This document shows positions 50,337 to 56,129 of a DNA stretch of 64,000 nucleotides, in pieces. Within the stretch, counting starts at the first letter, position 1. Each line of letters starts with the position of its first letter. The position numbers and the translations under genes were made by a program. Below the pieces are notes generated by a model. The model had not been told where the DNA came from. It searched no databases and saw nothing but the letters and a program-made list of their open reading frames with translations. Origin of the DNA: Thermoplasmata archaeon (GTDB lineage Archaea; Thermoplasmatota; Thermoplasmata; Lutacidiplasmatales; UBA184); the NCBI GenBank assembly GCA_046704665.1, contig JBJKRJ010000001.1:57255-121254 (forward strand), given 5' to 3'.

Positions 50337-50559
50337 GGGGTCCGGGACCTTCCGCCGCGGATGAAGTCGACCGGTCGGTGTCGAACGTCGGGCCGTGACG
50401 AGACGCAGGCCTATCTGCGTGCGGCTCGACCACGCGGGACCGACCGGGCGACGACTCGCGCGTGCGAGACCGTCACTCGCCCGGCGAACGGGCCTTGCAC
50501 CAATCGTTCGCACGCCCGCACCAAAATCGATAGACCCCCCGGGACCGGAAGCTCCCCCG

Positions 50560-51795
50560 ATGCAAGACCAGGTCCCCAGGGTCGACATCTTGTCGCCCGC
50601 GCTCGGAGCCCAGAGTCGCCAACTGCCCGCCACGATCCCGACGAACACGCCCGGGCCCCCGCCGACGGTCGTCCGCCCGAGCTCCCCCGTCCCCGAGACG
50701 GCCAAGTGGTGTTGGGGACTCCGTCGCCTCACGCCCTCCGAGGTCCGGGTCGACCCGCACCGCAGCGCCCAGGAGCCGTGCGCGGGCGATGTCGTCGTGG
50801 TACGGATCGAGAAGATGGGATACCACTCGTCCGTGGTCGGACGCGACAACCGCAAGCTGCGGATCTACCCGGGAGACCGGATCGTCGGGGTCTTTGGTCA
50901 TCGGTACGCCACGGATGCCTACGAGGCCGTCGTGGAAGGAACCGAGGAGCTGAGCCTCCTCACCGCGGGAGGCATGATCGGGACCGTCCGTTCCGCCCAC
51001 CGGGACATGAGCCGGCCCACTTCGGTCTCGTTCGTCGGCTACGCGACCGACCGGGACGGGCAGCGCATCAACCTCAAGGAGCAGCTCTTCCGCTCCGAGT
51101 TCCGCCCTCCCGGGCCGAAGAGCCCGCTCATCGTCGTCGTCGGGACCGGGATGAATTCGGGAAAGACGACCGTGCTCTCCCAGACCCTCCACGGCTTGAG
51201 CCGCCAAGGTCTCCGCGTCGCCGCGGGCAAGCTCACGGGCAGCGTCTCCAACCGGGACGTCGACGAGATGCGAGCGGCGGACGCCGTGTCGGTCCTTGAC
51301 TTCAGCGACCTTGGTTTCCCCTCGACCTACCTCACGGATCCGGTCGAGCTCGCGGCGCTCTGGCACGAGATCCTCGAGCGAAGCGCCGAGAGCCGACCCG
51401 ATGTGATGCTGATGGAGATCGCGGACGGACTGCTGCAGCGGGAAACCTCACTGATCCTCCGGGACCCCGAGTTCCGTCGACAGGTCTCGGGAGTGCTCCT
51501 CGCGGCCGACAGCTCCCTCGCCGCTCTCGCCGGGCTTGACGAGCTCTCTCGTCTCGGCTATCCGGTCCTCGGCGTCTCGGGCGCATTCACGTCGGCGCCG
51601 CTCTTCGTCCGGGAGTTCGAGTCCCGCAGTAGCGTGCCCGTCCTCCCCTCCATCGGGGAGGGTGCCGAGCTCGCCCGTAGGGTCCTCGAGCGGCTCCCCG
51701 CACCCGCCTGGAGCGCGCCGGAGGGCCCGTTCGCCGCCCTCCTCGCACCGGAGCTCGCGCCGGTCGTCAGCGACGTTCGGATGCCCGGCCCGTGA
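50560..51795 (+). CDS. P-loop protein of the CbiA/DTBS-like (DUF1611-like) type; alternative hypothesis: cyclic-2,3-diphosphoglycerate-synthetase-like
   Basis: Walker A 'IVVVGTGMNSGKTTV' preceded by a Rossmann-like N-domain. Start uncertain (ATG 50560 chosen). The stop overlaps the ABC exporter GTG as GTGA. Confidence 0.35.
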   Translation: MQDQVPRVDILSPALGAQSRQLPATIPTNTPGPPPTVVRPSSPVPETAKWCWGLRRLTPSEVRVDPHRSAQEPCAGDVVVVRIEKMGYHSSVVGRDNRKLRIYPGDRIVGVFGHRYATDAYEAVVEGTEELSLLTAGGMIGTVRSAHRDMSRPTSVSFVGYATDRDGQRINLKEQLFRSEFRPPGPKSPLIVVVGTGMNSGKTTVLSQTLHGLSRQGLRVAAGKLTGSVSNRDVDEMRAADAVSVLDFSDLGFPSTYLTDPVELAALWHEILERSAESRPDVMLMEIADGLLQRETSLILRDPEFRRQVSGVLLAADSSLAALAGLDELSRLGYPVLGVSGAFTSAPLFVREFESRSSVPVLPSIGEGAELARRVLERLPAPAWSAPEGPFAALLAPELAPVVSDVRMPGP

Positions 51796-53651
51796 GCGAA
51801 GCGCTCTCCGGACCCTCCTCCCTCGCCGGGGCGCCCCGGTCCGTGGCGCCCGGAGAGCCGGAGGAGATCGGGGACGCGACGGGCCAGCCGCCGGGGACGA
51901 TGCGCTTCGTCTTTCGGCAGCTCGCTCGGTTCCGAGGCCCGTTCGTGGCGGCGATGGTCTGGTCGGTCCTCTTTGTGATCGTACCGATGCAGGTTCCCCT
52001 GCTCGCCGGGATGCTCATCAATGGGCTCACCGGTCAGCCGGCCTCCTTCTATGGCGCGTGGACGTTGACGTCCGCGACCCAGATCTTCTGGTTCGCGGTC
52101 CTCGGGCTCGTGGTCGTCGCGGGGGCGTACGGCGCGACCGCCTATCTGACCGCCTCGTCGACCGCCGAGCTCGGCCGCACGTTCGTCCGGGAGCAGCAGA
52201 AGGAGCTCATCCGCAAGCTCGACACCAGCCCGATCTCCCTCCATCAACGGTACGGGTCGGGCGAGCTCCTCAGCCGGGTCGTGACCGACACCGCCTCGAC
52301 GCGGAACTTCGTCACGCAGGTCTTCTTCAACACCGTGCAGAACGCGGTACGGGTCGCCTACCCGGTCGTCGTGCTCTTCCTGCTGGACCCCTGGGTGGCG
52401 CTCGTGGCGGTCGCGATCCTCCCCGTCGAGTGGGGGGTCTCCCGCAAGCTCCAGGCCGGGCTCCGCACCGCGACGCGTACCGCGCGCTCGACCAAGGGAC
52501 GCCTCACCGCCGCGGTTCAGGAGAACCTCGACGGGATCGAGGCGATCCAGACGTCCCAGGCCGAAGCGGCCGCGACCGATCGCGTCGGACGGGAGGCCGA
52601 CCAGCTCGCGCACGACCAGATCCGGGCCCGGACGTACTTCGGCCTCATCAACGGGGTCACCTGGACCCTCACCTCGGTCGGGATCGCCGCCGCGTGGGCG
52701 GTGGGGGGCTGGCAGGTCCTCCACGGTGCCCTTTCGGTCGGAGTCCTGGTCGCGGTCGCGGGCTACGTCGCGCTTCTCTACCTGCCGATGCGGCGGTTCA
52801 CCTCGGTCGCGAACACCTACCAGAGCGGGCTCGTCGCCTTCGAGCGGATCCGCGAGGTGCTGGACGCGCCCTCCCCGATCGAGGACGACGAAGGGGCCCC
52901 GCCCCTCCGCGCAGGGTACGGTCGGATCGAGTTCCGCGACGTCTCGTTCGGCTACGGGACGACCCGCTCGCTTCACCATGTCAATCTGGCCATCCGACCC
53001 GGTCGTCTCACCGTGCTCGTCGGACGGAACGGATCCGGCAAGAGCACCGTCCTCAAGCTCATCGCTCGGCTCTACGATCCGGAGGAAGGCACGGTCCTCT
53101 TCGACGGCCAGGACGTGAAGCAGGTCCGCCTGCGTTCGCTGCGCTCCGAGGTCGCGGTGGTCCCCCAGTCCGCGACGATCTTTTCCGGCACCGTCGCCGA
53201 GAACCTCCGCCTCGGAAAACCCGACGCCTCGGAGAGGTTCGTGCGGTGGGCGGCCTCGGCGGCGGGCGCGGACCGGTTCATCGAGCGGCTCCCCCAGGGC
53301 TACGCGACGTATCTCGGCCCCGGCGGGGTCCGACTCTCCGGGGGAGAGGCGCAACGTCTCGCGATCGCGCGCGCCCTCGTTCGGCGCCCCCGGGTTCTTC
53401 TCCTGGACGAGCCGAATTCGGCGCTCGACCCGGAGTCGGAGCACCGGCTCTGGGAGGTGCTGACCCGGCTCAAGGGAACGATCACCGTGGTCGTGGTCGC
53501 GCACCATCTCGGGGCCGTGATGGGTTCGGCGGACGACGTCATCGTGATGGACGCCGGCCGCGTGGTCGAGCCTCGGAAGCTCCTCACCCCCGTCGCTCCC
53601 GCGGGGCCCGCCACCGATCCGCTCCGGTCGCTGCGGGGGTACCGCGCATGA
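51792..53651 (+). CDS. ABC exporter, fused permease + ATPase (type I exporter, MsbA/bacteriocin-exporter-like)
   Basis: Six N-terminal TM helices. NBD with Walker A 'GRNGSGKST', signature 'LSGGEAQR', Walker B 'LLLDEP'. Confidence 0.85.
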   Translation: MSEALSGPSSLAGAPRSVAPGEPEEIGDATGQPPGTMRFVFRQLARFRGPFVAAMVWSVLFVIVPMQVPLLAGMLINGLTGQPASFYGAWTLTSATQIFWFAVLGLVVVAGAYGATAYLTASSTAELGRTFVREQQKELIRKLDTSPISLHQRYGSGELLSRVVTDTASTRNFVTQVFFNTVQNAVRVAYPVVVLFLLDPWVALVAVAILPVEWGVSRKLQAGLRTATRTARSTKGRLTAAVQENLDGIEAIQTSQAEAAATDRVGREADQLAHDQIRARTYFGLINGVTWTLTSVGIAAAWAVGGWQVLHGALSVGVLVAVAGYVALLYLPMRRFTSVANTYQSGLVAFERIREVLDAPSPIEDDEGAPPLRAGYGRIEFRDVSFGYGTTRSLHHVNLAIRPGRLTVLVGRNGSGKSTVLKLIARLYDPEEGTVLFDGQDVKQVRLRSLRSEVAVVPQSATIFSGTVAENLRLGKPDASERFVRWAASAAGADRFIERLPQGYATYLGPGGVRLSGGEAQRLAIARALVRRPRVLLLDEPNSALDPESEHRLWEVLTRLKGTITVVVVAHHLGAVMGSADDVIVMDAGRVVEPRKLLTPVAPAGPATDPLRSLRGYRA

Positions 53652-55264
53652 TCTCCACCGAGCTACTGAGGAGCGTGGACGCCGGCACCGCACTCGTGGG
53701 ACGTGACGCACCCTCCTCCGCCCGTGAGGTTCCCCCAGAGCGAGGGATCCGGACCCGCGCGGTCGGCCGCTCGGTGGAGGGCCGCCGGATCGAGCTCGCG
53801 CACCGGGGGCCCGAGCCGGGCGAAGTCCGCATCCTCGTCCTCGCGGGTCAGCACGGGGACGAACCGTGGGGAAGGATCGCCGTACGACGGTGGATCGCAC
53901 AGGCCGACGATCGTGCGGTCGCCGCCGCCGCATCGTGTCCGGTCACGTGTCTCGCCGTGCTCGACGCGAACCCGGACGGTTCCCGGCGGAACCGCCGGCG
54001 GAACGCTCACGACATCGACCTCAACCGCGACCATCTCCTCCTTGAGGCTCCCGAGACGTGCACGATCCACGAGACGGTCCGTCGCTACCGCCCGCATCTC
54101 ATCGTCGATGTGCACAACTTCCCTTCCCGGCGTCGGCACCTCCTCGCCCGGGGTTGGACGATCGGGGCGGACGTCCAGCTCGCCGGCGCGACGCATCCCG
54201 CGATCCGCACCTCGATGACGGCGGCGGAGGAGGACGGATTGATCCTCCGGATCCGGAGCGACCTCGCCGCTCGCGGCTTTACGGCCGTTCCCTACACGCT
54301 CTTCCGTCGGTCGGGGAAGGCCCGGCCGAGCACCCTCCGCGTTCGCGACGCGCGGAACTCGCTCTCGCTTCGTTACGGCATCCCGACCGTCCTCGTCGAG
54401 GGACGCGACCCGGGTCGGAAAGGCTCGTCCCAGGGGGGGCTCCGCACCGCCGAGGCCCAGTTCGAGGCCCTGCGATCGATCGAGGCCTGGGCGTCCGAGC
54501 ACCGGGAGGGACTGTTGCGGGGGCCGCCGATCCCCGAAGCCGGCGAGTCGGTGCCGCTCGAAGCGCACTGGACAGAGAACGGAGAGCTCGGGAGCGTCCC
54601 GTTCGAGCGCACGGACTCCGGCGAGGCGGTCCGGGTCCCGTGGCCCCGCTTCGCGGGGGAACTTCGCGTTCGATCTCGCGCGTCGCTTCCGAGGGCCTAC
54701 GCCGTTCGGAACGATCTCACCGAGCTCCACGCGCTCCTTGCGCGGCACGGCATCACCGGCGATGCGATCGAGCGGTCGCGTTCGGCGTTGGTCGAGCCGG
54801 TACGGTCCTGGGAGGGCCCCCGAGAGACGGGCGCGAGCGGGGCGGTGGTTCACTCGTTACCGCCGCCGGCCCCCTTCGACCTCGCGGGCTACACCTCCTA
54901 CAGCGTTCACCAGCGCGCCGGTCGCGCGCTGGCCGTCTGGCTCGAAGCCGGTCCCCGCAGCGGTCTCGCGGCGCTCCGATCGGAGCGTGAACCGGTGCGG
55001 GCCGGCACCGGCTCCCCGATCCTTCGGGTGGTCCTCTGGGATTACCCCGCGGCCGGTCTCGGGTCGACCGGTCCGGCACGGGACCACCGGTCGGACCGGC
55101 GCCGCCTCGAACCGCTCCCCAACCCGTTTCGATGGGCGTTCGGCCCGTCCCCGTCGTGCTGGGGGGAACAGGGAAAGCCCGGCGCGCCGGCCGCCCGCGA
55201 TGGGTCGTCGGAGGGGAGCGCGCTCGGTCCGTCCGCGGTCCGGACGGACGACCCCCTCGGTTAA
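53648..55264 (+). CDS. M14-like zinc hydrolase of the succinylglutamate-desuccinylase/aspartoacylase (AstE/AspA) type, with long C-terminal extension
   Basis: 'ILVLAGQHGDEPWG' (HxxE zinc site) and 'NPDG...DLNRDH' M14 core motifs. The ATGA start overlaps the ABC stop. 538 aa. Confidence 0.55.
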   Translation: MISTELLRSVDAGTALVGRDAPSSAREVPPERGIRTRAVGRSVEGRRIELAHRGPEPGEVRILVLAGQHGDEPWGRIAVRRWIAQADDRAVAAAASCPVTCLAVLDANPDGSRRNRRRNAHDIDLNRDHLLLEAPETCTIHETVRRYRPHLIVDVHNFPSRRRHLLARGWTIGADVQLAGATHPAIRTSMTAAEEDGLILRIRSDLAARGFTAVPYTLFRRSGKARPSTLRVRDARNSLSLRYGIPTVLVEGRDPGRKGSSQGGLRTAEAQFEALRSIEAWASEHREGLLRGPPIPEAGESVPLEAHWTENGELGSVPFERTDSGEAVRVPWPRFAGELRVRSRASLPRAYAVRNDLTELHALLARHGITGDAIERSRSALVEPVRSWEGPRETGASGAVVHSLPPPAPFDLAGYTSYSVHQRAGRALAVWLEAGPRSGLAALRSEREPVRAGTGSPILRVVLWDYPAAGLGSTGPARDHRSDRRRLEPLPNPFRWAFGPSPSCWGEQGKPGAPAARDGSSEGSALGPSAVRTDDPLG

Positions 55265-55309: not shown

Positions 55310-55609
55310 ATGGAATGGTTTGAAGTGGTCCTTTCGGCGACCCTGTTGGTGCTCGCGGGGACGATGTCGGCCATCGCCTTCAGCGCTCAGCGAAACTTCC
55401 GCGACCCAAGGTTCCTGTCGGTCGGCGTCGCGCTTCTGCTGCTCCTGGTCGTCGGGGTCACTTCGCTCTACTCGAACGTGGACCCCACCGCCGAGCCCTC
55501 GTTCGACGTCGGTCTTGTCCCGCTCGTCCTCCTGGTCCTCACGGCCGTCCTGTTGAACCTGCCGATCCTCCTGCGTCTCCCTCGGTCGCGCGCGCCCGGT
55601 CATGGCTGA
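55310..55609 (+). CDS. Small membrane protein (3 TM, 99 aa)
   Basis: Three hydrophobic helices. The stop overlaps the downstream regulator start (ATGGCTGA). Confidence 0.45.
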   Translation: MEWFEVVLSATLLVLAGTMSAIAFSAQRNFRDPRFLSVGVALLLLLVVGVTSLYSNVDPTAEPSFDVGLVPLVLLVLTAVLLNLPILLRLPRSRAPGHG

Positions 55610-56129
55610 GGTCCTCCAACTGGAGAGTCGCCAGCGCATCTTCGCCCTCGTCCAGAAGAACCCGGGGCTGAGCGCGCGGGACATCCAGCGGATGCTCTCC
55701 CTCGGGTGGGGAGAGACCGCCTACCACCTCGACCGGATGTCGGATGCGGGTATCCTGCGACGCGAACGCGCGCCGAACCGCGACTTCTACTTCGCGTCCG
55801 AGGTGACCTGGGACGATCGCAAGTATCTCGTCTTCCTCCGAGGAGAGAATACTCGGAGCATCCTCCTCACCCTGCTGGCGGACCCGGGACTCTCGCCGAC
55901 CGAGCTCTCCGAGCGCCTCGGCCTCGGGAAATCGGTCGTCTACTTCCATCTGACACGGCTCGTCCAGGGAGGGCTCCTCGAAGGGAAGCTCGAGAACGTC
56001 ACCCGGCACTACCGCGTGATCCACCCGGAACAGGCGGTCCGTCTTCTTCGGACGTACCGCGAGAACTTCCGTGAGGAGCTCGCGAGCCGTTTCGCGGAAG
56101 TGTGGGGGACCCTCCTCTCGGAGGAGTAG
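55602..56129 (+). CDS. Transcriptional regulator with two tandem winged-helix (ArsR/MarR-like) domains
   Basis: 'IFALVQKNPGLSARDIQRMLSLGWGETAYHLDRMSDAGIL' and 'ILLTLLADPGLSPTELSERLGLGKSVVYFHLTRLVQGGLL'. Confidence 0.65.
   Translation: MAEVLQLESRQRIFALVQKNPGLSARDIQRMLSLGWGETAYHLDRMSDAGILRRERAPNRDFYFASEVTWDDRKYLVFLRGENTRSILLTLLADPGLSPTELSERLGLGKSVVYFHLTRLVQGGLLEGKLENVTRHYRVIHPEQAVRLLRTYRENFREELASRFAEVWGTLLSEE

Follow-up and report, generated by a model that had tools for sequence, protein, structure and literature searches.

Among the polyamide systems, the cyanophycin genes CphA and CphZ, together with an ABC transporter, pair a synthetase with a hydrolase of the M14 superfamily and a transporter, and poly-gamma-glutamate has PgsBCA with CapA. 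In enzymes of the dethiobiotin synthetase (DTBS), CTP-synthase and DUF1611 fold class, a carboxylate or carbonyl oxygen is phosphorylated and an amine then attacks. The locus described here, in a window of 64,000 nucleotides of a Thermoplasmata archaeon, also combines a P-loop protein, an ABC exporter and an M14 peptidase, but it has no CphA and no PgsB/PgsC. ATP-grasp enzymes and Mur ligases are absent from the trio, and its gene 1 belongs to a different fold family.

The trio is encoded on the forward strand by gene 1 (50560-51795, 411 aa), gene 2 (51792-53651, 619 aa) and gene 3 (53648-55264, 538 aa). The GTG start of gene 2 overlaps the gene 1 stop in the GTGA at 51792-51795, and the start of gene 3 overlaps the gene 2 stop in the ATGA at 53648-53651. 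Both overlaps are exactly as an earlier note on this DNA had given them, except that the junctions number two and not three. The same note had treated the P-loop, ABC and M14 genes as one unit. This is borne out by the neighbourhood comparison, in which the linkage is conserved over many archaeal and bacterial phyla and the three genes keep that order in 40 of the 63 loci with enough downstream sequence to be informative; the absence of conserved linkage that the note had named as refuting evidence was not observed. The numbers of homologues found for all three products indicate real genes and not chance ORFs of GC-rich DNA.

An AT-rich, TATA-like element, CAAAATCGATAGA, was read directly from the sequence at 50522..50534 on the forward strand, 26-38 nt 5' of the gene 1 ATG. 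It is conspicuous against the 70% GC of the window and may serve as an archaeal promoter for a leaderless transcript of the operon. On the other side of the trio, 46 nt 3' of gene 3, a small predicted membrane protein of 99 aa (55310..55609, forward strand) has GGAGGT 5 nt ahead of its ATG. It matches no Pfam family and has a homologue in the same place at one Thermoplasmata locus only (L010); it is possibly co-transcribed with the trio, and its membership of the module is uncertain. The gene that follows on the same strand (55602..56129) overlaps it by 8 nt and encodes a double winged-helix regulator with an HVO_0163-like N-domain and an HTH_24/ArsR-like domain (Pfam HTH_HVO_0163_N, 9.9e-16; HTH_24, 3.9e-18). 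Since this gene adjoins the trio at L008, L010 and L014, and weakly at L021 and L023, it is a candidate local regulator within the Thermoplasmata clade. The flanks had been described as an EamA exporter and the winged-helix protein; both do adjoin the trio, but EamA lies outside the module. The EamA protein, an RnfD-like protein, PhoU and thymidylate kinase were rejected as members, because synteny extends to them only in L008, the nearest relative.

Gene 1 is the founding member here of an uncharacterised family of two-domain P-loop enzymes. Scoring of 8000 candidates gave 375 matches, down to about 47% identity, and a profile search gave 1181 50%-identity clusters at E<=1e-10. Residues 1-45 vary among homologues and are predicted to be disordered. 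They are followed by a novel N-domain of about 120 aa (residues ~47-165), predicted to be all-beta and not Rossmann-like as had been proposed, with the motifs KWxW..R, GxRYATDAYE and LLTAGGMIGT. The P-loop domain, which is DTBS/DUF1611-like, spans residues ~190-380, and in it the Walker A motif VVVGTGMNSGKTTV noticed earlier was located at residues 192-205 (core GTGMNSGKTT, nt 51142-51171); it is accompanied by K224, DFSDxGFPSTY and a Walker B motif, MEIADG. About 70 columns are invariant across 34 aligned sequences, many of them within the N-domain, and a core of R115, K202, K224, D233, D247, D250, T256, Y257 and E286 is retained in distant homologues. Archaeal and bacterial members are about 50% identical, an unusually good conservation of a module between domains of life.

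Every curated Pfam and NCBIfam model stays below its cut-off on gene 1, and it has no curated family, no solved structure and no report in the literature searched. The nearest fold relatives of its P-loop domain are dethiobiotin synthetase and DUF1611. In hhalign, K202, T203 and K224 pair with BioD K15, T16 and K37, and these three residues and the Walker B E286, assigned through the MEIADG motif and not through the BioD alignment, are invariant in the 34-sequence and distant-homologue alignments. Gene 1 thus has the GTxxxxGKT P-loop, the Lys37 equivalent and the acidic Walker B residue of BioD. It differs from BioD in carrying M198/N199 where BioD has T11/E12, in scoring 12.5 bits on the BioD model AAA_26 (PF13500), whose cut-off is 27, and in giving no bioD match in NCBIfam; its profile finds BioD in the PDB at E=0.002, over 51 residues only. 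BioD is moreover a single domain of about 225 aa encoded in the biotin operon, whereas gene 1 has the additional N-domain, rich in invariant residues, and sits next to the exporter and peptidase genes, in a neighbourhood free of bio genes. Identity to BioD and to the synthetase domain of CTP synthase is 16-19%.

The DUF1611 proteins (TM0796, Ava_3511, DgcN) are 13-15% identical to gene 1, with only about 200 residues alignable, and DUF1611_N is Rossmann-like whereas the gene 1 N-domain is beta-rich. A CbiA/DUF1611-like label, as given previously, therefore holds in that the P-loop domain lies near DUF1611 and DTBS, but not at the level of the models: PF07755 gives 14.8 bits against a cut-off of 25, and PF01656 (CbiA/CobQ/MinD/ParA), which was rejected, 15.4 against 25.4. 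The Walker A VGTGMNSGKT has neither the KGG signature nor the deviant MinD/ParA lysine. Of the structural relatives, the nearest one whose activity is characterised, DgcN, is a D-glutamate N-acetyltransferase that uses acetyl-CoA and not an ATP ligase, which weakens the case for ATP-dependent ligation by gene 1. Nevertheless, its invariant residues, the P-loop and K224 aligned with BioD, and the phosphonate-cluster homologues described below make gene 1 look like an enzyme.

Gene 2 encodes an exporter of the ABCB type (type IV), with a six-helix ABC_membrane domain (PF00664, 9e-27, residues 54-332) fused to an ABC_tran nucleotide-binding domain (PF00005, 2.7e-35, residues 394-542). The closest PDB sequences are ABCB1/B4/B19, TmrA, Sav1866 and MsbA. 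All NCBIfam equivalogs remained below cut-off (MsbA, 364 bits against 602), as did the NHLP and bacteriocin models, and Pfam detected no N-terminal peptidase domain. The protein is thus a half-transporter, as had been suggested, but not specifically MsbA, and without a C39 peptidase domain it is not a bacteriocin-type PCAT.

Gene 3, with about 90 family members found, is, judged from its sequence, a true M14 carboxypeptidase. The QHGDE, NPDG and DLNRD motifs picked out in the earlier note are all present, and the catalytic domain (residues ~30-290) combines the HxxE...H ligands, a Glu at the catalytic position and an N-R motif for the substrate carboxylate on the carboxypeptidase alpha/beta fold. 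H69 and E72 (nt 53852-53863), H156, E251, N126 and R127 are invariant in 31/31 aligned homologues, so that the zinc ligands, whose loss would have spoken against an M14 enzyme, are kept; H156 as third ligand and E251 as catalytic Glu were assigned by motif position and not by alignment to a reference M14. The Pfam matches to M14 (PF00246, 22.2 bits against 21.6) and AstE_AspA_cat are marginal, above cut-off. Placement in the AstE/AspA branch did not hold, as CCP-like enzymes, MpaA and classical M14 carboxypeptidases are closer. Of these, the bacterial CCP-like enzymes (P. aeruginosa 4a37, Burkholderia 4b6z) have an N-terminal CCP domain that gene 3 lacks, and the murein-tripeptide amidase model of MpaA (NF007897) gives 24.4 bits against 157; archaeal hosts have no murein.

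A conserved beta-rich C-domain of its own (about 165 residues, ~300-465) sets gene 3 apart from both CCP-like M14 and MpaA. The C-terminal extension of some 250 aa reported earlier exists, but it consists of this domain and a disordered, clade-specific tail of about 65 residues (473-538) found only in close relatives. By ungapped spacing, R236 corresponds to residue 255 of carboxypeptidase A; hhalign against an approximate sequence of the bovine enzyme aligned only the N-terminal 60 residues and did not confirm this placement. The spacing and the identity of the relatives point tentatively to an acidic substrate. No hydrophobic signal sequence was seen by eye at the N-terminus, and the protein looks cytosolic.

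The trio occurs in Thermoplasmata, Nitrososphaeria (among them Nitrososphaera evergladensis SR1, where the trio consists of NTE_03245 and the next two genes downstream), Methanophagales, Acidobacteriota, Planctomycetota, Desulfobacterales, Trueperaceae and others, and its parts can be exchanged. In an Acidobacteriaceae locus (gene 1, M14, OEP, HlyD, AcrB) an RND efflux system replaces the ABC pump, and on Rhodobacterales plasmids the order is hydrolase, gene 1, ABC. The exporter at gene 1 loci is replaceable yet always present. An M36-like-PGA_cap (M36-CapA) fusion or an alpha/beta hydrolase may occupy the M14 slot, and the third partner is always a peptide- or amide-type hydrolase. HTTM, DCC and M48 proteins are added to the cluster in Acidobacteriota and Paracoccus; HTTM is a homologue of the vitamin-K Glu carboxylase. 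Within the 64-kb window no homologue of HTTM, DCC, X170 or M36-CapA was found. Distant gene 1 homologues lie in PEP-mutase phosphonate clusters of Bacillaceae, beside carbamoyltransferase and ATP-grasp genes, which places at least part of the family in small-molecule biosynthesis. Rosetta-stone fusions of gene 1 were limited to receiver domains and Mutator-transposase joins, and five other long family members carried no added Pfam domain.

A precursor peptide was sought by clustering all ORFs of at least 50 aa in 82 loci; nothing clustered beyond gene 1 and ABC/M14, with their antisense shadows, and partners specific to a lineage, and no conserved candidate was linked. Comparison of the 500-nt upstream regions by tblastx, ammonia-oxidising archaea included, likewise gave no conserved small ORF, and no second biosynthetic enzyme was found linked to the module. 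The literature searched contained no description, experiment or product of it. An anti-phage role was also considered and rejected, since PADLOC matched neither gene 1 nor gene 3, and the ABC nucleotide-binding domain matched generic ATPase models only.

We favour, with a probability of about 0.45, a dedicated make-and-export module that consists of an ATP-dependent ligase or cyclase, a cytosolic peptidase and an exporter, with a product that is probably acidic and peptide-like. The analysis shows which domains the proteins have, that their catalytic residues and their linkage are conserved, and that the exporter is interchangeable; from this we infer the chemistry, what kind of product is made and which way the pathway runs. 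Gene 1 would be a cytosolic ATP-dependent enzyme; considering the phosphorylated oxygen and amine attack of its fold class, the bond it makes is most likely an amide, a ureido or a cyclic one, and it would bind a small conserved substrate largely via the beta N-domain. Gene 3 would belong to the same pathway and act where a C-terminal carboxylate is free, on a residue that is probably acidic (Glu/Asp-type, possibly gamma-linked), and would trim the precursor or product or hydrolyse product left inside the cell; a biosynthetic role is unusual for a carboxypeptidase. A homodimer of gene 2 would pump the product out, and the 4-nt overlaps would couple translation of all three proteins. Of the synthesis, export and trimming of a small amide-linked or peptide product proposed earlier, synthesis and export remain the best reading, while trimming after export is unlikely because no signal sequence was seen in the M14 protein. 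The compatible solute, siderophore-like molecule or cell-envelope precursor suggested in the note would each be a guess at the product.

Alternatively, the substrate might be ribosomal: the trio would modify a gene-encoded peptide and then export it, or would remodel the C-terminus of a protein, and the precursor gene would lie elsewhere. The M14 enzyme would then expose or remove C-terminal residues and gene 1 would activate a C-terminal or side-chain carboxylate for ligation or cyclisation, in analogy to glutamylation/deglutamylation cycles or RiPP maturation. The accessory partners are indeed all of peptide-acting types (M14, M36-like and M48 peptidases), ABCB-type exporters are typical of peptides, HTTM is related to the peptidyl-Glu carboxylase, an Asp/Asn beta-hydroxylase lies near the gene 1 locus in Sulfitobacter, and the PGA_cap domain weakly matches the model of MslH, a peptide C-terminal epimerase (PMC10406935), at 70 bits where the cut-off is 700. 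We nevertheless regard this as unlikely, since no conserved small ORF lies beside gene 1 in any clade, the exporter has no leader-cleaving C39 domain, and an archaea-bacteria identity of about 50% for gene 1 is more in keeping with an unchanging metabolite than with a peptide that varies.

The kinship with DgcN raises another reading, in which gene 1 is an acyl-CoA-dependent N-acyltransferase and the M14 protein the matching deacylase of N-acyl-amino acids or peptides, on an acylation/deacylation route, for example for D- or unusual amino acids, that is coupled to efflux. The sub-threshold DUF1611 score, the all-beta N-domain and the fact that DTBS matches gene 1 equally well, with its Lys37 equivalent and invariant Walker B Glu, make this distinctly improbable, as does a gene 3 nearer to true carboxypeptidases than to deacylases. 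That gene 1 is a non-catalytic SIMIBI-type switch or assembly factor (like MinD, Mrp, HypB or MobB), regulating or metal-loading the transporter or zinc peptidase of a peptide-efflux or detoxification system without dedicated biosynthesis, seems very doubtful: the 34-sequence alignment has no deviant MinD/ParA lysine, GTPase NKxD or G3E Cys/His metal motif, and the very many invariant polar residues in both domains and the membership of phosphonate clusters indicate an enzyme. A cyclic-2,3-diphosphoglycerate synthetase of the thermoprotectant pathway, next to unrelated ABC and M14 genes, had been named as what would refute the earlier proposal; gene 1 does not show close similarity to the solved enzyme (8ork), and this explanation is effectively refuted already.

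Within the preferred make-and-export reading, a more specific and rather speculative proposal is that the gene 1 family would be a new class of DTBS-fold, ATP-dependent synthetases that form amides, ureido groups or rings, and would make with the M14 enzyme a secreted small acidic (Glu-type or ureido-linked) compound, which in bacteria would be the long-sought physiological substrate of the periplasmic HTTM/DCC pair. The producers of such a compound would be ammonia-oxidising archaea, Thermoplasmata, Acidobacteriota, Planctomycetota and marine Rhodobacterales.

The module is common among microbes that dominate their environments: soil and marine ammonia-oxidising archaea, Acidobacteriota, Planctomycetota and Thermoplasmata. 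The identity of its product would widen the enzyme chemistry known for the DTBS/CTP-synthase fold class, expose a secreted metabolite of organisms with a nearly uncharted exometabolome, and could provide a first route to the function of bacterial HTTM/DCC proteins and CapA-domain fusions. As cultured carriers exist, namely Flagellimonas lutimaris, Flavobacterium sp., Paracoccus albus, Tritonibacter mobilis and Sulfitobacter sp. (strain BSw21498), the question is directly testable.

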